Of a DNA stretch of 64,000 bases, positions 17,950-33,422 are shown piece after piece. A program made the translations under genes and the position numbers. Numbering within the stretch: position 1 is the stretch's first letter; each line of letters opens with the position of its first letter. Under the pieces are notes generated by a model. It was not told where the DNA came from and did no database searches. It saw only the letters and a list, made by a program, of their open reading frames with translations. Source of the DNA: a bacterium (GTDB lineage: Bacteria; Cyanobacteriota; Vampirovibrionia; Gastranaerophilales; Gastranaerophilaceae); NCBI GenBank assembly GCA_017396025.1, contig JAFQNF010000046.1:18788-82787 (forward strand). The letters are read 5' to 3'.

Positions 17950-19017
17950 CTACCTATTCAGAATTTTATCAAATAGCTTTTGAAGAGGATTTCTAATATC
18001 CGTTTTTTGAAGATTAACTAAAATTGGATATAGAGAAGACGGATACTTATACATATTTTTATGATGTAGAACTTTTATAAGATTTTTATGTTCTTTATGA
18101 TTAGAATTGGTAATACATAAACTTTCATTATATTCCGTATATGCACAACAATCTTGTTTATACTCCCAAAAAATAGGAAATGCGCCATATTCATCAGCCA
18201 TATCAATAAATGCCGGCATATCCTTGTAATTGTTAGACATAACTACAAATTGAATTAAAAAATCAAAATTATATTGTTTCTTTAATCCGCTTAAATATTC
18301 TAAATTTTGAAGCAACATATCAAACAGTTTTTCACCATTTTTAACAACTTTACCATATGTTTCCTTTGTTGCAGCATGAATAGAAATACGTATAGTATCT
18401 ATCTGACTAGGATTAATATTTAACTTATTAAATATCTTTTCATTACACAAAATACCATTCGTTGTAAAATCAAACTTAAGTTCCGGATATGTTTGTGCTG
18501 CTTTTTGTATAACTTTTCTACTATGTCTTGAACCAAAAGGATCACCATGTGTATTTATAACTAAAATTTTTGTAGTTTTTAAAAATGGAATTAAAAAATC
18601 ATCAATTTTATCATCCCATTTTTGTAGTTCTTCTTTAGATAAACGTTTTACTTTGTTTCTACAGATAATACATGCAACATTACACTCATAATCATAACCA
18701 TATCTAACCCTTAATGGTAAGGTTTCCATTTTCGGTTTAAAATCACTCTGAAAATCAGAAAAAAAGTTTCTATTATGTAACATAAAGCATTTATCTGCTT
18801 TACATAAAGAATAATCATTATTTAATATTCGTTGTCTTAAATCAATTGCTTTTTCAGAGTTCCAAACATCTTCCACACTATTTTCAAAAACATTTCCTAT
18901 TGAATAATATTCATTCCAACTTGGGCAGCAAACATAAACACTACCATCTGAGAATATTTCCATTTCTTGAAAAGGTGCTGGGCAAAAATCAAATTTATAA
19001 CTCATGTTTTTATCCAC
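17950..19017 (-). CDS. Radical SAM enzyme with an N-terminal SPASM/twitch-like Cys module (paralog 1 of 3)
   Basis: N-terminus FCPAPFQEMEIFSDGSVYVCCPSW...SIGNVF...DVWNS...SLCKADKC, then the radical SAM core CNVACIIC (CxxxCxxC), HGDPF, TNGIL and IRISIHAAT. Confidence 0.75.
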   Translation of the reverse strand: MDKNMSYKFDFCPAPFQEMEIFSDGSVYVCCPSWNEYYSIGNVFENSVEDVWNSEKAIDLRQRILNNDYSLCKADKCFMLHNRNFFSDFQSDFKPKMETLPLRVRYGYDYECNVACIICRNKVKRLSKEELQKWDDKIDDFLIPFLKTTKILVINTHGDPFGSRHSRKVIQKAAQTYPELKFDFTTNGILCNEKIFNKLNINPSQIDTIRISIHAATKETYGKVVKNGEKLFDMLLQNLEYLSGLKKQYNFDFLIQFVVMSNNYKDMPAFIDMADEYGAFPIFWEYKQDCCAYTEYNESLCITNSNHKEHKNLIKVLHHKNMYKYPSSLYPILVNLQKTDIRNPLQKLFDKILNR

Positions 19018-23809: not shown

Positions 23810-24775
23810 ATGTTTTGTCCACAGCCATTTGAGCAAATAGAAATATATGAAAACGGTGACGTTTATACCTGTTGCCCTAACTTTATAAATTTTTTCAGCA
23901 TTGGAAACATATACCATCAATGTTTTGATGAGATTTGGAATGGAGAAAAAGCACTTAACTTTAGAAAAAAGATTTTATCAGGCGATTTTTCACTTTGCAG
24001 TAATAATTGCAATCGTAAAACTTGTTTAAATGAACAAAAAGATTATTTAAACGAAAAAGTAACAATGTATCCAAGAGAAATTGCCGTTAGTTCTGATAAA
24101 TCTTGCAATGTTCAATGCAAAATATGCAGGGACAAACTGATAAATATTAAGCATAACGAGAACAATATTAAGGAAGAAATAGAAAAATATTGGCTACCAA
24201 TATTTAAAGATGCCCAAATTATAAGATTTGGTTGCACTGGCGAGCCGTTTTTCTCTGTCAAAGAAAAATTAATGATAAAAATGGTTGCAGATTCATATCA
24301 AAAGGCAAAATTTGATTTTCACACAAATGGCATACTCGGAAATGAAGTTCTTCTAAAAGAATTAAATGTATATAGTAGAATACGAGAAATTACAGTTAGT
24401 GTACACGCAGCTACGGAAAAAACATACAATTCTATAGTAAATGCCGGAAACTATAAAAAAGTTTTGGAAAATTTAAATTTATATTCAAAAATGAAAAAAA
24501 ATAATTTACTACACAGATTTCGTTTAATTTTTGTTGTTATGTCGTACAACTACAACGAAATGGTTGACTTTGCAAAACTATCACAAGAATTGGGTGCAGA
24601 TGTTGAATTTTGGGCATACCGCAAAAATGATACAATGCTATCTAACATTTATAATGAAGTATCAGTTGTAGAAAAAAGCAATCCGTCACACAACGATTTA
24701 CTGAAAATATTAGAAAATCCAATATTTGACAGTCAAAATGTTACTTTATACCCAGAATTAAAGAACTTACGCTAA
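23810..24775 (+). CDS. Radical SAM enzyme with an N-terminal SPASM/twitch-like Cys module (paralog 2 of 3)
   Basis: MFCPQPFEQIEIYENGDVYTCCPNF...SIGNIY...EIWNG...SLCSNNCNRKTC, then CNVQCKIC, TGEPF, TNGIL and ITVSVHAAT. Confidence 0.75.
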   Translation: MFCPQPFEQIEIYENGDVYTCCPNFINFFSIGNIYHQCFDEIWNGEKALNFRKKILSGDFSLCSNNCNRKTCLNEQKDYLNEKVTMYPREIAVSSDKSCNVQCKICRDKLINIKHNENNIKEEIEKYWLPIFKDAQIIRFGCTGEPFFSVKEKLMIKMVADSYQKAKFDFHTNGILGNEVLLKELNVYSRIREITVSVHAATEKTYNSIVNAGNYKKVLENLNLYSKMKKNNLLHRFRLIFVVMSYNYNEMVDFAKLSQELGADVEFWAYRKNDTMLSNIYNEVSVVEKSNPSHNDLLKILENPIFDSQNVTLYPELKNLR

Positions 24776-25489
24776 ATCATCCTGAATGTTTTCATCAATT
24801 TGCATTTGAACAGCTTTAATATCAGCATTGGCATCTATTGTAACAACCTTTTCTCCGTAGTAGTTTACTAAAGTATCCTTAACTCCATTGTAAACATCAA
24901 TTCTTGTTTTTAACTTATCAACAGTATCATCTTCTCTACTTTGATGCTTTGCTCTAGATGTCATTCTTTCAATTAGTTTATCTTCGTCAACCACAAGCTG
25001 AATAACTTTAATTTTCGCATTTTCTTTAGAATTTAATTCATCAATCATTTGTGCTTGTTCTTCGGTTCTTGGGAAACCGTCCAAAATATAACCATTTTGG
25101 CAATCTTCTTGAGAAATTCTATCCACTAAAATTCTGCCAAACAGTTCTGTTGGCACAAGTTTTCCATTATTCATATATTCTCGCGCTTCAAGCCCCAATT
25201 TAGTTTCATTTTTTACTTCTTCTCTCAACAAATCACCAGTTGAAATATGCGCAATATTCAATTTTTTAGCAAGTTTTTGTGCTTGAGTCCCCTTTCCACT
25301 AGCTGGCGGACCAAGAAAAATATAAATCGTTTTTTCTTTTAATCTGGATTCTTTATTCTTATCTTGAACCTTTCCACTAAAAGAAAAAGTATCAGCTTTT
25401 AATGGGCTTAACATTCCACTTCTTTGGAAAGAATAATTATTTTTATAATTGTTCACACGAAAACCACTTGTAACTTTTGAAATAAACAT
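24767..25489 (-). CDS. adk: Adenylate kinase with an N-terminal extension of about 53 aa
   Basis: Core starts IYIFLGPPASGKGTQ at about aa 55, with typical Adk motifs (GDLLR, GFPRT, R..DD). No Met lies near the P-loop, so the extension (or at least the part from M26) is encoded. The extension carries ADTFSFSGK. Confidence 0.9.
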   Translation of the reverse strand: MFISKVTSGFRVNNYKNNYSFQRSGMLSPLKADTFSFSGKVQDKNKESRLKEKTIYIFLGPPASGKGTQAQKLAKKLNIAHISTGDLLREEVKNETKLGLEAREYMNNGKLVPTELFGRILVDRISQEDCQNGYILDGFPRTEEQAQMIDELNSKENAKIKVIQLVVDEDKLIERMTSRAKHQSREDDTVDKLKTRIDVYNGVKDTLVNYYGEKVVTIDANADIKAVQMQIDENIQDDLA

Positions 25490-25669
25490 AAAACACTCCT
25501 AAACTACCTAATTACTATAATAAATTTAGCTGTATATAGCAAATATTATGATAAAAAATGTAAAGTTAAGTAGAAAAAGAGTAAACAATTCATTAAAATG
25601 AAAATACTCAAATTAAATTTTGTACAAAAAACCACTCAAATAAAATTTTACATAAAAGGAGACAAAGTT

Positions 25670-26038
25670 ATGAAATGCTTCAACCATCATGATAGAGATG
25701 CTTTTGGGATTGACATAATCACTGGAAAAGGACTTTGTTTAGAATGTCTTGAAGAGAACAAGGGTTTTATAATAGAAAAAAATAGCAAAATTTCAAAATT
25801 AGCCTCACAACATCTCGCTCGATTATATAAAAGTTCTGACCCACAAAATCTACTCAAAATATTTAAATATATTATGTTAACTAGCTCAGCACTATATTTT
25901 ACTCTTGCTGGTTATGAATACTTTGTAAAATCAGATATATATAAATGTTTAGATGATTTTATTCTTGGTTGTGTAGCGTTAGCTGCACTCTTTATTGTTT
26001 TTTCTTTTAGCAAAATTTTAAAAAGGGAAGGAAAATAA
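25670..26038 (+). CDS. Zn-ribbon/B-box-like membrane protein (tandem paralog 1)
   Basis: I prefer the start MKCFNHHDRDAF at 25670 (AAGGAG upstream). It has a C..HH...C..C N-terminal motif and two predicted TM helices. Confidence 0.55.
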   Translation: MKCFNHHDRDAFGIDIITGKGLCLECLEENKGFIIEKNSKISKLASQHLARLYKSSDPQNLLKIFKYIMLTSSALYFTLAGYEYFVKSDIYKCLDDFILGCVALAALFIVFSFSKILKREGK

Positions 26039-26415
26039 TGAAATGTTTTAATCATCACGATAGAGATGCTTTTAGCATTGATCCAATTACAGGCAAAGGC
26101 CTTTGCGTAGAATGTCTTGAAGATTGGCAAGGGCACTTAATTGAAAAAAGTAATAAAACATCACGAAATGGAGTACAATACAAAATCAAAGCAATAAAAT
26201 ATAGTAAAATGCTTACATTAAGTAGTATATTATTTGGCTTATTTGCAGGTGCCCATTTTTTCTATTTATTTGTATGCTTTTATTTCTTTACAGAAGAAAA
26301 AACGATATATGGATCTTTTATTTCTCTATTAGGTACAGTCACTATGTTTTATTTCTTAATTGATGCAATAAAATACGGTTATTTACAGATAAAAAACAAA
26401 ACTACTCGTTTGTAG
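26038..26415 (+). CDS. Zn-ribbon/B-box-like membrane protein (tandem paralog 2)
   Basis: MKCFNHHDRDAFSIDPITGKGLCVECLED is near-identical to the N-terminus of paralog 1, followed by two TM helices. The last 7 codons lie within the left 20-nt direct repeat. Confidence 0.6.
   Translation: MKCFNHHDRDAFSIDPITGKGLCVECLEDWQGHLIEKSNKTSRNGVQYKIKAIKYSKMLTLSSILFGLFAGAHFFYLFVCFYFFTEEKTIYGSFISLLGTVTMFYFLIDAIKYGYLQIKNKTTRL
26391..26410 (+). repeat. Left copy of a perfect 20-nt direct repeat (putative attL core)
   Basis: AAAAAACAAAACTACTCGTT, identical to 33061-33080. Confidence 0.8.
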
Positions 26416-26471: not shown

Positions 26472-26520
26472 TTTGTTTGAACTTGAGGCTAACTTCCCGC
26501 AGTACCATAGCAAAATTTTA

Positions 26521-26602
26521 TTTTTGCCACTTTTGCCGAATTCTTGCCAAAGTTTTTGCCGTTTTTTCAGTTGTCCTTGTTGCATTTTGGCGATTTTTGG
26601 CT
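26521..26602 (+). repeat. Helically phased T-tract/GCC motif array
   Basis: TTGCC at 26524, 26533, 26544 and 26556, then TTGGC at 26587 and 26597. Spacing is 9-12 nt. The segment is locally more GC-rich than its surroundings. Confidence 0.5.
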
Positions 26603-26662
26603 TGAGCTTTGAGAGATATTAAAGGAAATTACGGTTAAAGATAGCAATTAAGCACGCTATTT

Positions 26663-27223
26663 TTATGTTATTTCATCAATTTTTTTTATTATAATTTCAT
26701 CAACAACTTTAAAAGCCTCTCGTAATGTCATATGTTTGTCATTTGTTGTGAGTAAGTCGTCGTTACTGATAATTGTAATATCTGTAAAATATTGCATAAT
26801 ATCAGCTATTGAATAAATTGCTTGGTTAATACGTTTTCTTCCTTCAAAATTAAAGGGAACAGTAACAATTATTTCTGTATTAATTCCCATATCTTTTGCG
26901 ATTTTTGCTATTACAGGTGTAGCTCCAGAACCTGTTCCGCCACCTAAACAACTATAAAGAATTAATGTTTCTGTATCATTAATAAGTTCTTTAATTTGGT
27001 CTTTTGCAAGTTCTGCCCAAGCTTTTCCTTTATTAGGATTGCCACCTGCACAATGACCGTCATCTCCAATTATTAATTTTTTATCAGCGAGGCTTAATTC
27101 CATCAATTTCTCGTCGCTGCCAATTGAAATAAGTTCATAGTTGCTAATATGGCTTTCTTTTAATGTTTTTGTAATTCTGATAGCACCTGAACCAACAGTA
27201 ACTATTTTAATTTTCTTTTTCAT
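26663..27223 (-). CDS. Stand-alone FtsZ/tubulin GTPase domain (no C-terminal domain)
   Basis: 186 aa. Tubulin signature GGGTGSG, AGGNPNKG (T3), VTVPFNFEGRKR (T5) and ISNDDLL (T6). It is collinear with E. coli FtsZ residues of about 10-200 and ends at helix H7, before the T7 loop. The T1 loop is degenerate (GSGAIR instead of GGGGGN). Confidence 0.75.
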   Translation of the reverse strand: MKKKIKIVTVGSGAIRITKTLKESHISNYELISIGSDEKLMELSLADKKLIIGDDGHCAGGNPNKGKAWAELAKDQIKELINDTETLILYSCLGGGTGSGATPVIAKIAKDMGINTEIIVTVPFNFEGRKRINQAIYSIADIMQYFTDITIISNDDLLTTNDKHMTLREAFKVVDEIIIKKIDEIT

Positions 27224-27303
27224 GAGTTATCCTCCAATTTTTTATTATAATTTGAGAATAATGCATGAACATGTCAGTTATGGACGCAACTAATAAAAAA
27301 TAT

Positions 27304-28083
27304 CTATTTTATTTCGTAAATGTATTTTTCACGAGTTGTATCTACATTTATATTTTGAAGCGTTACCTTTTTTTTATCATTTAAAACTTTTTTTCTAGCT
27401 AAAAGATGATATGGTTTTTCATTTATTTCGTGAAAAAATGTTTTAAATTGGCAATTAGAGTAGTGGCTTTTAATTAAATTAATTATTGTTCTTTCATCAA
27501 AATCATTGTTTCCAAATGCAAGAACAAAGTCTTTTGATATTTTTGTTTCAAGATATTTTTTTATAAAAGATATATTATCTTCTTTTTCATAATTTGTTGG
27601 GATTTTTTCTTCGTTACTTAAAATCCTTTTCAGTTCATTAGGGCAATGATGTCTGTATGAATATAAGTTAATGACAGCAAAATATTTAAATCCAACATTT
27701 TCTTCATTATTACAAACCATTGTTGCCCACTTCCTCGCTCTATTCATTGTGGGGTCAGATTCGTTTGAAGATGCATACGATGGATTTAACATTATATAAG
27801 TTAAAATTCCTTTTCGTGTCTTATAAAAATTGTCGTTAGTTATTTCTTCAATATAAAAATATCTTGAACAAGGAATATTCTGCATGTTTTCATAAATATT
27901 TTTTAGACACTTTTCATTTTTATAGGCTTTGAATAATTTCTCTTTTTCTTTTTTTTTATATTTTTCTTTTGAAAAAATAATAAAACCTTTAATTTGTTTT
28001 TCTATATCTTTTATTTCATATTTTTTTGGTTCAAGTTTTTCTTCTATTATACCTTTTATTGTATTTATATCCTCTATTTCCAA
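27304..28083 (-). CDS. DUF1643-like protein with a K/E-rich N-terminal extension
   Basis: LTYIMLNPSYASSNESDPTMNRARKWA...YFAVINLYSYRHHCPNEL matches the DUF1643 layout as I recall it (mlNPS.a....DpT.rrc..fa......v.NLfa.r...p..l). It lies upstream of, and co-oriented with, the mini-FtsZ gene. Confidence 0.5.
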   Translation of the reverse strand: MEIEDINTIKGIIEEKLEPKKYEIKDIEKQIKGFIIFSKEKYKKKEKEKLFKAYKNEKCLKNIYENMQNIPCSRYFYIEEITNDNFYKTRKGILTYIMLNPSYASSNESDPTMNRARKWATMVCNNEENVGFKYFAVINLYSYRHHCPNELKRILSNEEKIPTNYEKEDNISFIKKYLETKISKDFVLAFGNNDFDERTIINLIKSHYSNCQFKTFFHEINEKPYHLLARKKVLNDKKKVTLQNINVDTTREKYIYEIK

Positions 28084-28236
28084 AATTAAAATCCTTTGTT
28101 TAAAAATTCTTTATCAATAATACTTTCTTAATTATATTTGTTTCTTCTTAAAATTCAAATTAATTTAATCTTTGTTATTGTATGTCCATATGTGACGCAT
28201 ATTTGTTCTATTGTTTATATAGGAGAACTAATCTTA

Positions 28237-29450
28237 TGAAATTAGAACAAATAAAAAATTGCAAAGACGAATATTGTACACAATTTACATTTAATCTTAT
28301 AAAAATATTAAAAAAAGAGTGTAATCTCCCAAATAATGTGAGACTTTTTTGTTTATCGTATAGAAATTTAGTTTATTATTTCTTTTATAAAAATATTGTT
28401 TTTGCTGTATCTGGAATTACCGTTGAAAACAAAAAAGAAATTAAAAATATCGATTGTATCTATAAAATTATTCTATTAAAAAATACGCCAATTTCTGTGG
28501 ATGATATTGAAGTTGAAGTAGTAAAGTCTAATTCTGATAATAAATATTCACTAGAAAATTTTTTAGATTTTTTAAATAGTCCTTCAAATATAACCGAAGA
28601 CATTGATTTGCCCTATTATAAAATCATATATTTATTTCATCAGATAAATAGAACTAGATTTGAATATGGTGATTTCGTTTTTTATATAAAGCGTGATAAT
28701 GACTACTCTCTTTATTTAAATCTTTATGCTAAAAATAAAAAAAATAATAATATTGTAAAATTATATCTTCCATATATTTGGGAAAGAGATGAAAAAACTT
28801 TTCTTTTTTATAAAAAGATACCAACTAACTTAAGAAAAATATATGTGGATGATTTTTCTAAAAATTTATCTGATTATCAAAAGAGAAAATTTAAAACAAG
28901 TCTTCTAAAATTTATACAAGAAGAAAATAAATTTTTTAATATTAAAAATTTTTATGTAATTTATTTAATAAAACAAATTATTCAACCTGTTGAATTTGAT
29001 ACAGGATGGATGGCACTTCGTATTTTTCGTTCATGTTCTGAGTTTTCGAATATATGGGTTGATGACTTTTTATCTTACGGTAATAAACCTTATTTCTTAA
29101 TTGCAAATAGTAGCAATGTATACGACATTACTAAAATCGCTATTATTGACTTTAAAGAACCCAAATATGTTACTAAAGATATATATAAACAAAATCTTAT
29201 CAAATTTCTTCATTGGGAACTTTCAAAGGATTATTTAAAAAAGTTAGTTGAATTTTTAAAACAACCATATAATGGGTGGGATTCTCTTTCTATAAAAAAT
29301 GGAGTAAAAACAAATTGGCAAAAATTAATATTTAAATATAACTTTAATACTGTTCTTGCTTGTGATTTGGAAAATAAAAACGCCATATTGGACTATGAAA
29401 TTTTGCCATTAGATTTACCAATTCCTGATTATACAAAATTATTGAATTAA
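28237..29450 (+). CDS. Orphan protein (island operon gene 1)
   Basis: I prefer the start MKLEQIKN at 28237 (TAGGAG upstream); the track ORF starts at 28182. About 404 aa, K/N/Y-rich, with no motif I recognise. Confidence 0.5.
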
Positions 29451-29472
29451 TATAAAAACATAGGAATGGATT

Positions 29473-30000
29473 ATGAAAAATAAAAATAAACAAAAAAATA
29501 ATACAGAATTTAATCAAGATGAAATTATAGAAATGGATAAGCGTGCTGCATTAATTGGAAAAGCAGATACATATTCTTCAGAAGAAATATTGAAAGAATT
29601 TGGTTATTTTAGCTTGAAAGATGAACTAGTCAAAACTCATTTATTTAATGCTGAGAATAATGAAACTCCAGAAGAAACTGAAAGTTTTTTTCTAACACCA
29701 TTGAAGCAAGATGAAATAGGGCTTCCAATGTGTGTGCATCTTCGATGTATACCAAATAAAGGAGAACCTCCTTTTTTACGTTTTCAAAATGATAGAAATA
29801 ATACATTGAACAGTAATTGGGTAAAAATCTATATTGATGGTCAAATCGACAATTATGAAAACAAAAAATTAGTTTTTACACAGTCCGAATTAAATGATTT
29901 AAAAGATTGGATAAATTTAAATAAAGAAGTCATAACAAAACATTATTATAAAGTTTATAGTTCGTTGGAAGTTTGTCACAAGTTAAGAAAATTCAAGTAA
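29473..30000 (+). CDS. Orphan protein (island operon gene 2)
   Basis: 175 aa, 22 nt after gene 1. No confident family assignment. Confidence 0.5.
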   Translation: MKNKNKQKNNTEFNQDEIIEMDKRAALIGKADTYSSEEILKEFGYFSLKDELVKTHLFNAENNETPEETESFFLTPLKQDEIGLPMCVHLRCIPNKGEPPFLRFQNDRNNTLNSNWVKIYIDGQIDNYENKKLVFTQSELNDLKDWINLNKEVITKHYYKVYSSLEVCHKLRKFK

Positions 30001-30033
30001 GAATATTTAAGAAAAATTATAAGGAGCAAAACA

Positions 30034-30381
30034 ATGACAAAAGAAGAAAACAAAAAACGAATGTATTTTCACGGCGAATGTGTAATTGCTGAAATTACAA
30101 AATTACCTAAAAATCTCAAGGCTAGAAATGACAAAGATTCTATAATGATTGCTGAGTCAGAAACAGTCGGCAATGAACATAGAATTAGAGTCAAAGAAGG
30201 TGTTGAATTTTATGAAGATGCACACGGGATTCTGTATATGAAAAATACTGTTCCAACAGAGGTTTATTGCTTACACGCAGAACGCCACGATACAATCACT
30301 CTTCCCGAAGGACTCTGGCAAATCGACAAAGCTCAAGAGTATGATTATTTAACTGCAAAAATTGTATATGTTGCAGATTAA
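30034..30381 (+). CDS. Small phage-type beta-rich protein (island operon gene 3)
   Basis: 115 aa with AAGGAG upstream. FHGECVIAEITKLPKNLK...MIAESETVGNEHRI...LHAERHDTITLPEGLWQIDKAQEYD matches a small protein family common in phages (GDVll..v..lP.....vLA.GE.TGH.H.....H.eH..i.lp.G.y.v..QrEy). This is from memory only. Confidence 0.5.
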   Translation: MTKEENKKRMYFHGECVIAEITKLPKNLKARNDKDSIMIAESETVGNEHRIRVKEGVEFYEDAHGILYMKNTVPTEVYCLHAERHDTITLPEGLWQIDKAQEYDYLTAKIVYVAD

Positions 30382-30397
30382 GGAGAGTTTATTTACA

Positions 30398-31678
30398 ATG
30401 ACAATTCCAAATGTTTATATAATTAAATCGGATAATGTTGACGAGATTGTAAATGAACTAAAACTCTACAGGCATAAATGTCAATTTTCTATTGTTGAGT
30501 CAAATAGTGCAAAAGATCTTCTTGCACAAATTGGTATTCTAGAAGAAGACAAGAAAATTTTTCAAGATTTAAATAAGCGCCATTCCCAAATAATTACAGA
30601 AAACTATAACAAAGCAGTTGAAAATATCAGATACAATAAAAAAATTGAACAAAGAATGGCGATAAAAAAATACATTGATTCTATTTTAATGGATGACACA
30701 AGACAATTATATGATGATCAAATCAAAGCACTTTGTAATGAATTTTATTTTGAATTTATTTATTCAAATAAAAAATTGTGTACACAGTTACCAAAACCCA
30801 ATATAAAAATTTTAAATTATTTTGATAAAGACATTCTAAAATCTTTACTTACAACTAATGCTTATAAAAAAGTTTTTAATAATTATTTTAAAAAAACATT
30901 TAAATATATAAAAAGACCACCTTATGAAGAAATATATTTCCCTTATTATGACCGTTTTGAGAATTGTGATAATGGGGTTTTGAATTATTATTCAAGTTTT
31001 GGTGGTGTTTTTCAAGCTCCGGAAGGATATTATAATCTATATTTTGGCGATTTCAGAGAAATTGATTCTAAATGTGAAATATTTCTTAATTGGTATAAAA
31101 AAGCTTTTAATGTACTTGCAATGTTTTATAACGAAAACAATAACACTATTTATGTTATAAAGCGTCCCCCAAAAGGCTGTTTTACGATGGCAGAAAATGG
31201 TGATATTACCATTATTTCTGAGAATAAAAAACAATTTATTAAAGGTCATTTATCATTTGACTATATAGTTAGAACCCCTGCAGAAGAGTTAGATATCAAA
31301 GACTATGCATCAATAAGAAATGCAGATGCAAAGGCTAAATTTGTCGAGAAAGTTGGATTTGAGAAATTATTTAAATTTGGCATTTTAATTGATACTTATG
31401 AAAATTATCCGGAAAATGAAATGTGGGCAAAATCCGAATATAAAATTATCGATATGCATAAAATTATTCCTCCGAGAAGAAAACAAAGCCAAGTTGGCGC
31501 CAGTATGGGCATTGCAGAGCGTTTTTCATACGCCCCATTTTTATACATGAAAAACCAAACAACAGGTGTTTATCATTTGGAAGGCTTGCACCCACGTTGC
31601 AAAACTCTCTATGATGCACTCAAAATGCGTTATAACGGTTTAAACATCAAAGATTATGACATTAAAGATATTAAATAG
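30398..31678 (+). CDS. Orphan protein, C-terminal half possibly DUF6745-like (island operon gene 4)
   Basis: I prefer the start MTIPNVYIIK at 30398 (AAGGAGAG about 11 nt upstream). The C-terminal IRNADAKAKFVEKVGFEKLF...FLYMKNQTTGVYHLEGLHPRCKTLYDALKMRYNG resembles a domain with the pattern NaevRr..iErvG.erf ... v.N.t..dG......l.Vp....a.eAvAwt. Low certainty. Confidence 0.45.
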   Translation: MTIPNVYIIKSDNVDEIVNELKLYRHKCQFSIVESNSAKDLLAQIGILEEDKKIFQDLNKRHSQIITENYNKAVENIRYNKKIEQRMAIKKYIDSILMDDTRQLYDDQIKALCNEFYFEFIYSNKKLCTQLPKPNIKILNYFDKDILKSLLTTNAYKKVFNNYFKKTFKYIKRPPYEEIYFPYYDRFENCDNGVLNYYSSFGGVFQAPEGYYNLYFGDFREIDSKCEIFLNWYKKAFNVLAMFYNENNNTIYVIKRPPKGCFTMAENGDITIISENKKQFIKGHLSFDYIVRTPAEELDIKDYASIRNADAKAKFVEKVGFEKLFKFGILIDTYENYPENEMWAKSEYKIIDMHKIIPPRRKQSQVGASMGIAERFSYAPFLYMKNQTTGVYHLEGLHPRCKTLYDALKMRYNGLNIKDYDIKDIK

Positions 31679-31727
31679 TTTATAACTATTTTAAAATAAA
31701 ATATAATTATATAGAAAGTGATAAGTA

Positions 31728-32960
31728 ATGAATAATAATTTTGCTGATTTTTCTTGTGTAAGAATGGATGAACAAAACCCAAAATGGGAACACTCTATTT
31801 CTCGTGAAATTGAAATATATAAAAAAGATTATGATATAAGAAACCCATTTGAACGTGATTTACATAGACTTACTCACTCAAATGGTTATAGAAGATTAAA
31901 GAATAAAACACAAGTATTCTTTGCACCACAAAATGACCATATTTGTACAAGAATAGAACATGTTACACATGTTTCTTTAGTTGCTGAAACTATTGCAAGA
32001 TATTTAAGATTAAATACTGATTTAGTACGAGCAATAGCGACAGGTCACGATATAGGGCACGCACCTTTTGGACATCAAGGCGAAACTATTCTTAATGAGA
32101 TAGCTAAAAAATACGAGCTAAAAAAATTCTGGCACGAAGGAAACAGCTTACATTTTATTGATAATATTGAAACTCTACCAGACTATCAAGGTTATCAAAG
32201 AAACTTAGATTTAAGTTATGCAGTTCGTGATGGAATAGTTTGTCATTGTGGAGAAGTCGATGATAAAATTCTTTTACCGCGCAATTCAGAAAGAATTTTA
32301 AGTGAAATTAAAAGAGAAGAAAAAGAATGTGCATTTACATATGAGGGTTGTGTTGTAAAAATTTCAGATAAGATTGGTTATATTGGTCGTGATATTGAAG
32401 ATGCACTATCTTATGGCATATTGTCCGAATATCAAATACAAGAATTAGAAGATATTATTCAAAATACATACAAAGATTTAAAATTAACTGAAATAAATAC
32501 AACAGTTTTAATGCATAAATTCATCATAGACTTGTGCGAAAATTCATCACCAGAATTGGGTTTGTGTTTTTCTGATGATTGCTTTAAAGCATTGCTAAGA
32601 ATTAAAAAGTTTAATTATGAAAATATCTACAACCACTCAAGGCTATTACCATTTAAAAACTATGCAAGACTTATCATAAATACAATTTTTGATAAACTTG
32701 ATGAACTCTATGGAATAAATTTAGTTTTAAATTTTAAAAAAGAAAAAAACTTTTTCCCTGAGCTAATTAAACATTTTGAAGATTGGTTAATAAAATATTC
32801 AAACTATGATTTAGAAAAGAAAAAAGAACTTAAATTAGAAAATAAAATTGTTTATAACTTAGAAGAACAAGACGAATATCGAAAAGCTATTATAGACTTT
32901 ATTTCAGGAATGAGTGATAACTTCGCCATTGCAACATTTAACGAAATAATTAGTTTTTAA
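31728..32960 (+). CDS. dGTPase-like HD-domain triphosphohydrolase (island operon gene 5)
   Basis: RDLHRLTHSNGYRRLKNKTQVF, TRIEHVTHVS, GHDIGHAPFGHQGE and the C-terminal DFISGMSDNFA are all typical of the Dgt/dGTPase-like family. Confidence 0.85.
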   Translation: MNNNFADFSCVRMDEQNPKWEHSISREIEIYKKDYDIRNPFERDLHRLTHSNGYRRLKNKTQVFFAPQNDHICTRIEHVTHVSLVAETIARYLRLNTDLVRAIATGHDIGHAPFGHQGETILNEIAKKYELKKFWHEGNSLHFIDNIETLPDYQGYQRNLDLSYAVRDGIVCHCGEVDDKILLPRNSERILSEIKREEKECAFTYEGCVVKISDKIGYIGRDIEDALSYGILSEYQIQELEDIIQNTYKDLKLTEINTTVLMHKFIIDLCENSSPELGLCFSDDCFKALLRIKKFNYENIYNHSRLLPFKNYARLIINTIFDKLDELYGINLVLNFKKEKNFFPELIKHFEDWLIKYSNYDLEKKKELKLENKIVYNLEEQDEYRKAIIDFISGMSDNFAIATFNEIISF

Positions 32961-33285: not shown

Positions 33286-33321
33286 AAAAAAAGAGAGCCT
33301 TTCGACTCTCATTTTATTATT

Positions 33322-33394
33322 CTGGGGCGGAAGGATTCGAACCTCCGAGATGCCTGGACCAAAACCAGGTGCCTTACCACTTGGCGACGCCCCA
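33322..33394 (-). tRNA. tRNA-Gln (anticodon UUG)
   Basis: Minus-strand TGGGGCGTCGCCAAGTGGTAAGGCACCTGGTTTTGGTCCAGGCATCTCGGAGGTTCGAATCCTTCCGCCCCAG folds as a cloverleaf. Acceptor is TGGGGCG/CGCCCCA, the anticodon stem is CCTGG/CCAGG with loop TTTTGGT, and the T-arm is GGAGG-TTCGAAT-CCTTC. It is near-collinear with E. coli tRNA-Gln. No CCA is encoded. A GAAA-tetraloop terminator follows (33286-33310). Confidence 0.92.
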
Positions 33395-33422
33395 ATAAGG
33401 CTGTCTGTCTCTCGACTCTTAT

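Follow-up and report, generated by a model that had tools for sequence, protein, structure and literature searches.

In this study, we describe FtsZN, a stand-alone nucleotide-binding domain of the division protein FtsZ. Its gene lies in a 64,000-nucleotide stretch of contig JAFQNF010000046.1 (assembly GCA_017396025.1, positions 18,788 to 82,787), hereafter called the window, from a bacterium of the Gastranaerophilaceae. FtsZN corresponds to NCBI entry MBQ4078781.1, which is labelled "hypothetical protein IJD15_06335 [bacterium]". The gene and its control region comprise the following features:

26663..27223, minus strand: FtsZN coding sequence, 186 aa, ATG start; stand-alone FtsZ nucleotide-binding domain from S1 to H7
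27231..27235, minus strand: Shine-Dalgarno sequence GGAGG, 7 nt before the FtsZN ATG, read directly from the sequence and kept in the clade-1 loci
27255..27287, minus strand: promoter-like element, with the palindrome GCGTC-N7-GACAT (27287..27271), 10 nt, and the -10 box TATTCT (27260..27255)

According to the original prediction, which was made from the sequence alone, this protein is collinear with the FtsZ N-terminal domain and is truncated precisely at a domain boundary. All of the comparisons we made agree with that description. FtsZN carries the motifs VGSGAIR (T1), CAGGNP (T3), GGGTGSG (T4), PFNFEGRKR (T5) and ISNDDLL (T6). The Pfam family Tubulin (PF00091) matches it with E = 2.7e-26 over profile positions 1-187 of 190, and the NCBIfam equivalog TIGR00065 (ftsZ) matches it with 149.2 bits (E = 1.9e-43) over model positions 17-203 of 353, a score under the equivalog cutoff of 295.2 bits. 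In a phmmer search of the PDB, the best matches are all FtsZ; the first is S. aureus FtsZ (E = 1.7e-32), in which chain positions 6-186, equivalent to residues 14-194, pair with FtsZN residues 5-182. By this alignment, FtsZN lacks approximately the last four residues of H7 and has no T7 loop (NLDFAD). An AlphaFold2 model based on the family alignment has a predicted local distance difference test score (pLDDT) of 88.9 and forms its final helix from residues 167-185. A Foldseek search with this model retrieved FtsZ structures only, with template-modelling scores of approximately 0.9 when normalised by the query and approximately 0.56 when normalised by the target, the second value being lower because FtsZN is half a protein.

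The missing half was not found elsewhere in the window. FtsZ_C (PF12327) has no match in FtsZN, the T7 synergy loop motif NxDxxD is absent, and the C-terminal end (...KKIDEIT) has neither a linker nor a tail peptide for the membrane tethers FtsA, ZipA and SepF. A tblastn search with eight full-length FtsZ queries identified no FtsZ C-domain in any frame of the 64 kb and returned the N-domain match only. Similarly, a full-length FtsZ hidden Markov model (HMM) aligned with the window over positions 3-191 of 309 only, with nothing of the C-domain. These searches confirm that the T7 loop and the C-terminal domain are absent from the protein and that no remnant of the latter persists downstream or in another frame. 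The gene also has a start, a stop and a ribosome-binding context of its own, as had been claimed, in the form of the ATG, the GGAGG 7 nt upstream and a separate promoter region.

Conservation of the FtsZN family

A search of 5.8 billion proteins returned 12 close relatives of FtsZN with 56-98% identity, all of which are 186-191 aa long and share the same end point. When distant members were included by a profile search, the family comprised 15 clusters at 90% identity, again of 186-191 aa. Family members score at least 284 bits, compared with 156 bits for the nearest full-length FtsZ, which leaves a gap of more than 120 bits. The full-length FtsZ proteins nearest to the family are approximately 306 aa long, occur in Patescibacteria and DPANN, and show approximately 35-39% identity; the best identity of FtsZN itself to any full-length FtsZ is about 37-42%. 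The pairwise ratio of nonsynonymous to synonymous substitution rates (dN/dS) among close members is 0.11-0.27. On the strength of these comparisons, we consider the family to be under purifying selection and FtsZN not to be a pseudogene.

An exhaustive HMMER search of 1.84 billion representatives identified further stand-alone N-domain proteins of approximately 187-203 aa. In the following, P-numbers denote related proteins and L-numbers denote related loci (contigs), the contexts of which were taken solely from ENA and Logan contigs. In leave-one-out HMM tests, P0059 and P0064 grouped firmly with the window clade; P0063, P0066, P0082 and P0102 were borderline and may represent independent truncations. 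The peptide patterns of the family had no match in 185,579 GTDB species genomes, IMG/VR and JGI metagenomes, and the gene is therefore sporadic and rare. No phage-borne relatives were found: tblastn searches of phage and plasmid collections gave only ordinary full-length ftsZ, and these matches sat on chromids or mis-binned records.

We then compared the family with 107 canonical FtsZ proteins at the 49 N-domain columns that are conserved in at least 85% of them. The family keeps 32 of these columns, keeps 5 in part and has lost 12. The kept residues include G72 and P75 of T3, the GGG-G-G pattern of T4, P135, F136, E139, G140 and R143 of T5, N166 of T6, D46, and the guanine contacts F183 and D187 of H7. 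The hydrophobic top-face residue equivalent to E. coli L178 is L167 in FtsZN, as read by eye from the PDB-search alignment. The lost residues include the T1 glycines G18, G21 and G23, N44 and T45 of T2, G104 and L127. The T1 loop, which had been noted as degenerate in the window copy (GSGAIR), is degenerate across the whole family. In the more distant P0064 subgroup, N166 and D187 are altered as well. At position G193 of H7, which in FtsZ is turned towards the C-domain, all family members carry Lys, and this substitution fits a long adaptation to life without the C-terminal domain. Moreover, the family has invariant residues of its own (W69, K65, E176 and K181) that are absent from canonical FtsZ.

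Two other kinds of N-domain-only protein came to light during these searches. P0038, P0040 and P0042 form an FtsZ-like group of 245-251 aa in which H7 is followed by a low-complexity tail, on contigs of up to 181 kb. P0053 is a high-GC protein of 242 aa that has a Tat-like signal (RRxFL) and shares the GSGAIR T1 loop of FtsZN. Judging from these sequences, FtsZ has apparently been reduced to its N-domain on several occasions. Some candidates were rejected: P0058 and P0060-62 (731-840 aa) are duplicated or fused full-length FtsZ rather than family relatives, and P0013, P0027, P0029, P0115 and P0162 are contig-end fragments of ordinary FtsZ rather than stand-alone N-domains.

The promoter-like element and a putative WYL regulon

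The conserved WYL-type element upstream of FtsZN and its association with DUF1643 and RtcB go beyond the original prediction and are the main new finding of our study. Sequence similarity among all FtsZN loci starts at one point, 63 nt before the start codon (window position 27286). The consensus element is a 17-bp palindrome, ACGTC-N7-GACRT, which is followed by a fixed 10 nt and a TAnnnT box. No -35 box occurs at sigma-70 spacing, and a sigma-70 scan finds no standard promoter at the element. The pattern CGTC-N7-GACR-N11-TAnnnT has a single match in the 64 kb window, at 27286..27255 upstream of FtsZN, compared with 0.01 expected from shuffled sequences. In each of the 11 independent loci for which upstream sequence is available, the element precedes FtsZN, down to an FtsZN identity of 36%; the matches are exact in L094 and L095 and have one mismatch in L092 and L093 (left arm TGTCC...). 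A LexA or Cheo box upstream of FtsZN was considered and rejected, since neither fitted by eye and alignment revealed the palindrome instead.

The same element is not confined to FtsZN. It is found in front of operons composed of a small open reading frame (ORF) and RtcB (L006, L008, L096-L098 and L102), and DUF1643 genes follow it in L092, L096-L098 and L102. The element-bearing RtcB operons of L096-L098 and L102 also encode a WCX regulator, and the WCX proteins of the RtcB operons combine the HTH_11, WYL and WCX domains in 319-324 aa. A protein with these three domains is also encoded in L006.

The geometry of the element matches that of promoters that depend on WYL activators (PafBC, DriD and SiwR), and we regard it as a putative promoter of this type. 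PafBC promoters have the form tGTCgg-N10-tAnnnT, with a -26 element and no -35, and the mechanism has been termed "sigma adaptation" (PMC8635444). The SiwR site is a palindrome at -26 (PMC10693628). In the didA promoter, which has no -35 box, a palindromic DriD site (ACGAC-N7-GTCG) stands at a fixed distance from the -10, and DriD switches on the division inhibitor DidA after DNA damage (PMC13004042). The layout of the didA promoter is the one found before FtsZN. More generally, WYL regulators sense single-stranded DNA (ssDNA) and control damage responses and phage defence (PMC11662680, PMC11804915). In our opinion, the shared element and its association with DUF1643 and RtcB suggest a checkpoint induced by stress and not a constitutive island toxin.

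Gene neighbourhood of FtsZN

The features that flank FtsZN in the window are as follows:

27304..28083, minus strand: DUF1643 gene, 259 aa, directly upstream of FtsZN (PF07799, E = 2.6e-12; phrog_3230)
28158..28131, minus strand: sigma-70-like promoter of the DUF1643 gene, from a promoter scan; ordinary and not of the palindrome type
28182..29450, plus strand: divergent gene of 422 aa, conserved to the left of the DUF1643 cassette that has been swapped; without a match in Pfam, PADLOC or PHROGs
26474..26610, no strand: non-coding block 3′ of FtsZN, with 85% DNA identity to L001-L004 and phased GGCAAAA/GCCAAAA repeats

In the window and in L001, L005 and L092, FtsZN is directly preceded by a DUF1643 gene of the same strand, the FtsZN of L092 being only 37% identical to the window copy. 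In L006 and L007, the DUF1643 gene is 2 kb upstream of FtsZN, with a retron-type reverse transcriptase (RT) gene and a gene for a DnaB_C-only ATPase in between. This RT-ATPase insertion (L006:550-2279, minus strand) also occurs in L007 and L010; its RT matches the PADLOC model RT_II-A with 169 bits, its ATPase is 274 aa long, and in L006 a copy of the promoter element lies on each side of it (positions 406 and 2341). A gene of the uracil-DNA glycosylase (UDG) superfamily (PF03167) takes the place of DUF1643 beside FtsZN in L008 and L093. Related genomes contain tandem DUF1643 arrays of up to five paralogues without FtsZN (L096:5205-9280, L097, L098 and L102). These diversified paralogues are 22-26% identical to the window copy, several of them carry their own copy of the palindrome promoter, and the arrays adjoin an Xre-type helix-turn-helix gene, an operon for a 114-aa protein, RtcB and a WYL/WCX regulator, and Fic, AAA/nSTAND and UvrD-PDDEXK genes.

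DUF1643 has been described on SCCmec elements, as insertion sequence (IS) cargo and in phages. It is a candidate member of the UDG superfamily, which is defined by an alpha/beta fold with motif A (xxNPx) and motif B (His). The invariant motifs of DUF1643 (LNPS...D.T, NL..YR, A.G and P.H) are collinear with UDG motifs, and hhalign gave a weak match between DUF1643 and the two UDG neighbours (E = 0.008, probability 5%). A DUF1643 profile search of the PDB returned no match, and the AlphaFold2 model of the protein is poor (pLDDT 45). PADLOC-DB v2 has no match for FtsZN or DUF1643; its only matches are the neighbouring HD-domain protein of the window (dGTPase model) and the RT of L006 (retron RT models).

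An 85-aa ORF of L006 (4596-4853, minus strand), also present in L007, is the first gene of an operon behind a palindrome promoter, in which it is followed by a 73-aa ORF and RtcB. It resembles the last beta-alpha-beta unit of the FtsZ C-terminal domain and lacks T7 and H8. Its match to Pfam FtsZ_C (E = 9.4e-5) reaches 23 bits, under the gathering score of 27; with a purpose-built HMM it scores 19.8 bits, compared with a maximum of 10.8 in 2000 shuffles. This ORF, which is absent from the window and occurs only in the L006/L007 lineage, may be a relic of a full-length ancestor of FtsZN. A split gene with its C-domain encoded nearby was considered for FtsZN and rejected, since the window contains no such domain and the remote 85-aa ORF is restricted to L006 and L007.

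The window as a whole is chromosomal DNA of a diderm, with approximately 31% GC, and contains gatA, nusA, nadB, ftsY, nusB, adk, genes for hydrogenase-4-type subunits and a TonB-dependent receptor. The encoded NusA shares 97% identity with that of a Gastranaerophilales MAG from roe-deer caecum, and most of the 80 nusA loci retained for comparison (78-97% identity) belong to MAGs labelled Gastranaerophilales, Melainabacteria or non-photosynthetic 'Cyanobacteria'. Between 25.6 and 31.7 kb, the GC content falls to 0.23 and several ORFs have no family match; no integrase or transposase was seen in this region around FtsZN. In comparison with L001, the 422-aa gene shows 95% DNA identity and 100% protein identity to the start of that contig, and the FtsZN cassette (27286..26613) shows 87.5% DNA identity, whereas the DUF1643 copies share 31% protein identity and no DNA similarity. 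The DUF1643 cassette has been swapped between strains while its flanks stayed conserved. The original prediction placed FtsZN on a mobile island, and this is supported only in part: the region is variable, low in GC and includes a swapped cassette, but no integrase or transposase was found and the locus is syntenic with a related contig.

Several further observations concern the surroundings. The non-coding block at 26474..26610 contains three exact copies of its repeat within 40 nt; a small RNA or terminator in this block was rejected because it has no Rfam match, a fold z-score of approximately +0.4 on both strands and no terminator. To the other side, the plus-strand stretches 28182-31678 and 31728-32960 (GC 0.23 at 28-30 kb) hold four ORFs of 422, 175, 115 and 438 aa. 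The 422-, 175- and 438-aa ORFs have no Pfam, PADLOC or PHROG match, and the 115-aa ORF, which was scanned against Pfam only, has no Pfam match. This low-GC stretch (28182-32960) may have been acquired horizontally. The gene after the four ORFs encodes the HD-domain protein (PADLOC dGTPase model, 175 bits) and adjoins a tRNA-Gln gene (33321-33395, minus strand). Convergent with FtsZN are two tandem paralogous genes (25598-26038 and 26038-26415, plus strand), whose products are 50% identical over 86 aa and have a Cys/His-rich N-terminus (MKCFNHHDRDAF..GKGLC.EC), hydrophobic C-terminal segments and no Pfam match. The adenylate kinase (24767-25489, minus strand) has an unusual N-terminal extension of approximately 58 aa, its ADK domain occupying residues 59-214 of 240. 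Radical-SAM/SPASM proteins flank the region (17950-19017, minus strand, and 23810-24775, plus strand) and also occur in the partly syntenic L005:2746-9532, which suggests a peptide-maturation or cofactor cluster.

FtsZN as a possible inhibitor of host FtsZ

We consider it possible, with a probability of roughly 40%, that FtsZN is a functional stand-alone FtsZ nucleotide-binding domain with its own promoter that acts as an inducible capper or sequestrator of host FtsZ, and hence as a division checkpoint like SulA, DidA and MciZ. According to this model, damage to nucleic acids or phage attack would lead a WYL activator to turn on FtsZN through the palindrome that stands in place of the -35. The induced protein would bind guanine nucleotide and dock, via its intact top (nucleotide) face, on host FtsZ at the face that bears the T7 loop, whether on free monomers or at the growing filament end. 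FtsZN would then form the lower half of a longitudinal interface that is open below. Since T7 loop, GTPase-activating domain, bottom face and membrane-tether tail are all absent from FtsZN, the next subunit could not add, hydrolysis would not be activated and the tethers would not be reached, and assembly of the Z-ring would stall until FtsZN was removed. We infer the identity of the regulator, the induction by damage, and the binding of nucleotide, the binding of host FtsZ and the capping of filaments by FtsZN.

The capping idea is plausible in that it fits the literature on the FtsZ longitudinal interface. In this interface, the nucleotide-binding domain of the lower subunit packs against the T7-bearing, GTPase-activating C-terminal domain of the upper subunit, and monomers add by their pre-organised, GTP-bound top surface to the growing end, which exposes T7 (PMC8936486). 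FtsZ mutants altered at the bottom interface are toxic and block division, and MciZ caps filaments (PMC8936486). The model presumes a canonical ftsZ in the host genome; a Melainabacterium of a sister order has ftsZ and minCDE (PMC4451040).

The proposed role resembles that of several known inhibitors, with differences in each case. Bottom-face (T7-side) mutants and MciZ, like FtsZN as proposed, engage one longitudinal interface and do not permit extension (PMC8936486). However, the mutants are laboratory point mutants of full-length FtsZ, whereas FtsZN is a natural, separately encoded half-protein with a top face only, and MciZ is an unrelated 40-aa peptide on the bottom face of FtsZ, whereas FtsZN would occupy the T7 face of its partner. 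SulA, which is controlled by LexA, and DidA, which is controlled by the WYL regulator DriD, are small, inducible proteins that halt division in the damage response, as we propose for FtsZN. SulA sequesters FtsZ monomers via the T7 face, and DidA acts on late divisome proteins and not on FtsZ. Neither has a sequence or fold relationship to FtsZN, the induction of which is predicted from the promoter layout. The FtsZ-like inhibitor ARC3 of plant chloroplasts is a conceptual parallel; however, ARC3 is a large multidomain protein (FtsZ-like, middle and MORN domains) regulated by ARC6 and the Min system, and FtsZN is a bare domain of 186 aa from a non-photosynthetic relative of cyanobacteria.

Natural FtsZ-like proteins without a complete C-terminal part have also been described. 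FtsZ3 of A. tumefaciens (Atu_4215) is, like FtsZN, a natural extra paralogue with a partial GTPase domain and without a linker or C-terminal tail, but the literature describes neither a conserved family nor a promoter element or gene neighbourhood for FtsZ3. FtsZl1 and FtsZl2 are divergent members of the FtsZ-tubulin superfamily that, like FtsZN, lack the canonical FtsZ C-terminal domain (Makarova & Koonin 2010; PMC2875224). FtsZl1 carries a coiled-coil followed by an alpha-helical C-terminal domain and is without T6-H7 (PMC2875224), whereas FtsZN keeps T6 (NDD) and H7, has no extension and scores as FtsZ proper with TIGR00065. Compared with canonical FtsZ, FtsZN shares the GGGTGSG GTPase domain and is without the T7 loop, C-domain, linker and tail.

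Several points weigh against an inducible capper. Even at best, FtsZN shares about 37-42% identity with a full-length FtsZ, and its T1 phosphate loop is without G21 and G23; together with the changes in the P0064 subgroup, this loss may mean that nucleotide binding is weak or dispensable in part of the family. The partial GTPase-domain paralogue FtsZ3 is diffuse in the A. tumefaciens cell and its deletion has no phenotype. We infer regulator binding to the FtsZN element from the geometry of the motif alone, and neither RtcB nor a WYL regulator is encoded in the 64 kb window. In addition, the recurrent link with DUF1643 and UDG genes would be explained by co-regulation and not by the capping mechanism itself.

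This link lies at the heart of one alternative, which we regard as unlikely: FtsZN may belong to an anti-phage or DNA-surveillance module with the DUF1643/UDG-type enzymes and serve as a nucleotide-binding sensor, a regulator or an abortive-infection effector, with the control of normal division not being its primary role. Such a module is suggested by the DUF1643 gene directly upstream of FtsZN in four loci and 2 kb upstream in L006 and L007, by the adjoining UDG gene in L008 and L093, by the five-paralogue arrays beside Fic, AAA/nSTAND and UvrD-PDDEXK genes, and by the retron-type RT and the dGTPase homologue nearby. The exchange of the DUF1643 cassette between strains and the reports of this family on SCCmec, as IS cargo and in phages are consistent with it, UDG-superfamily glycosylases are a known type of defence (Brig1, PMC11078745), and WYL regulators also govern defence systems (PMC11662680). 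However, PADLOC has no match for either protein, DUF1643 arrays exist without FtsZN, and L094 and L095 have neither DUF1643 nor UDG within the short contigs recovered. The replacement of DUF1643 by a copy of 31% identity while FtsZN stayed at approximately 88-90% argues against a tight co-evolving pair, and the retention of FtsZ-specific top-face and pocket residues would be left unexplained. A related idea, raised in part by the original prediction, is that FtsZN is a decoy that soaks up phage inhibitors of FtsZ of the Kil or Gp0.4 type or poisons the phage tubulins PhuZ and TubZ. The variable, island-like context, the putative inducible WYL-type promoter and the response of WYL regulators to phage-induced ssDNA (PMC11662680) are compatible with this idea, as is the preserved FtsZ-like surface. 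We nevertheless consider it very unlikely: no phage-borne relatives, PADLOC link or effector were found, and an identity of approximately 37% to FtsZ makes a poor mimic. The PhuZ/TubZ version is not supported, since FtsZN is far closer to FtsZ (E = 1.7e-32) than to TubZ (4xcq, E = 0.0048) or PhuZ (phrog, E = 2e-4), and co-assembly with phage tubulins is improbable.

The remaining alternatives treat FtsZN as a product of decay. It might be the surviving half of an old FtsZ paralogue that split or decayed near RtcB, now weakly functional or with a role unrelated to filaments, such as that of a small GTP/GDP-binding regulator. This history is supported by the 85-aa C-domain-like ORF at the head of the RtcB operon in L006 and L007, and it is in keeping with the repeated truncation seen in P0038/P0040 and P0053, the degenerate T1, the family's own invariant residues (W69, K65, E176 and K181) and the absence of a division phenotype for FtsZ3. 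However, we think it unlikely in view of the purifying selection and conserved length down to 37% identity, the conserved dedicated promoter element and the kept FtsZ-specific pocket residues; moreover, the C-domain fragment occurs in one lineage only and not in the window. That FtsZN is a fragment left by a recent pseudogene, or a frameshifted version of the real ftsZ, is suggested by the truncation itself and by nothing further. A frameshifted ftsZ is excluded by at least 12 relatives of equal length with a common end point, by a dN/dS of 0.11-0.27 and by an identity of no more than 42% to full-length FtsZ proteins. In addition, residues that face the missing domain have been remodelled (e.g., G193 to Lys) and no frame of the window encodes a C-domain. 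The pseudogene explanation is thus refuted for practical purposes, as the original prediction had maintained.

Truncated FtsZ paralogues and FtsZ-derived inhibitors were already known in outline (FtsZ3, ARC3 and FtsZl1). In the literature and libraries searched, we found no description of a conserved, separately regulated, N-domain-only FtsZ family with such a promoter and neighbourhood. If FtsZN caps filaments, evolution would have reused half of a division protein as the inhibitor of that protein. In that case, no bacterial checkpoint inhibitor before FtsZN would have been known to descend from FtsZ itself, and FtsZN would be a natural counterpart of the engineered bottom-face poisons with which the polarity of FtsZ filaments was established. 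It would also provide a clean natural tool for studying how filaments treadmill and how they are polarised, and FtsZ inhibitors, whether peptides or proteins, could be modelled on it. To our knowledge, nothing is known at present of the damage or phage responses of gut Melainabacteria. The broader proposal that these bacteria carry a WYL-controlled damage or phage-alarm regulon of RtcB, DUF1643-type enzymes and FtsZN, in which the half-FtsZ caps the T7-exposing growing filament end as the division-arrest effector, is doubtful as a whole; if true, the shared element would mark a stress regulon, controlled by a WYL protein, that has not been described before in these uncultured bacteria. Even if capping fails, the FtsZN family represents a conserved, unannotated, stand-alone use of the tubulin/FtsZ GTP-binding domain.

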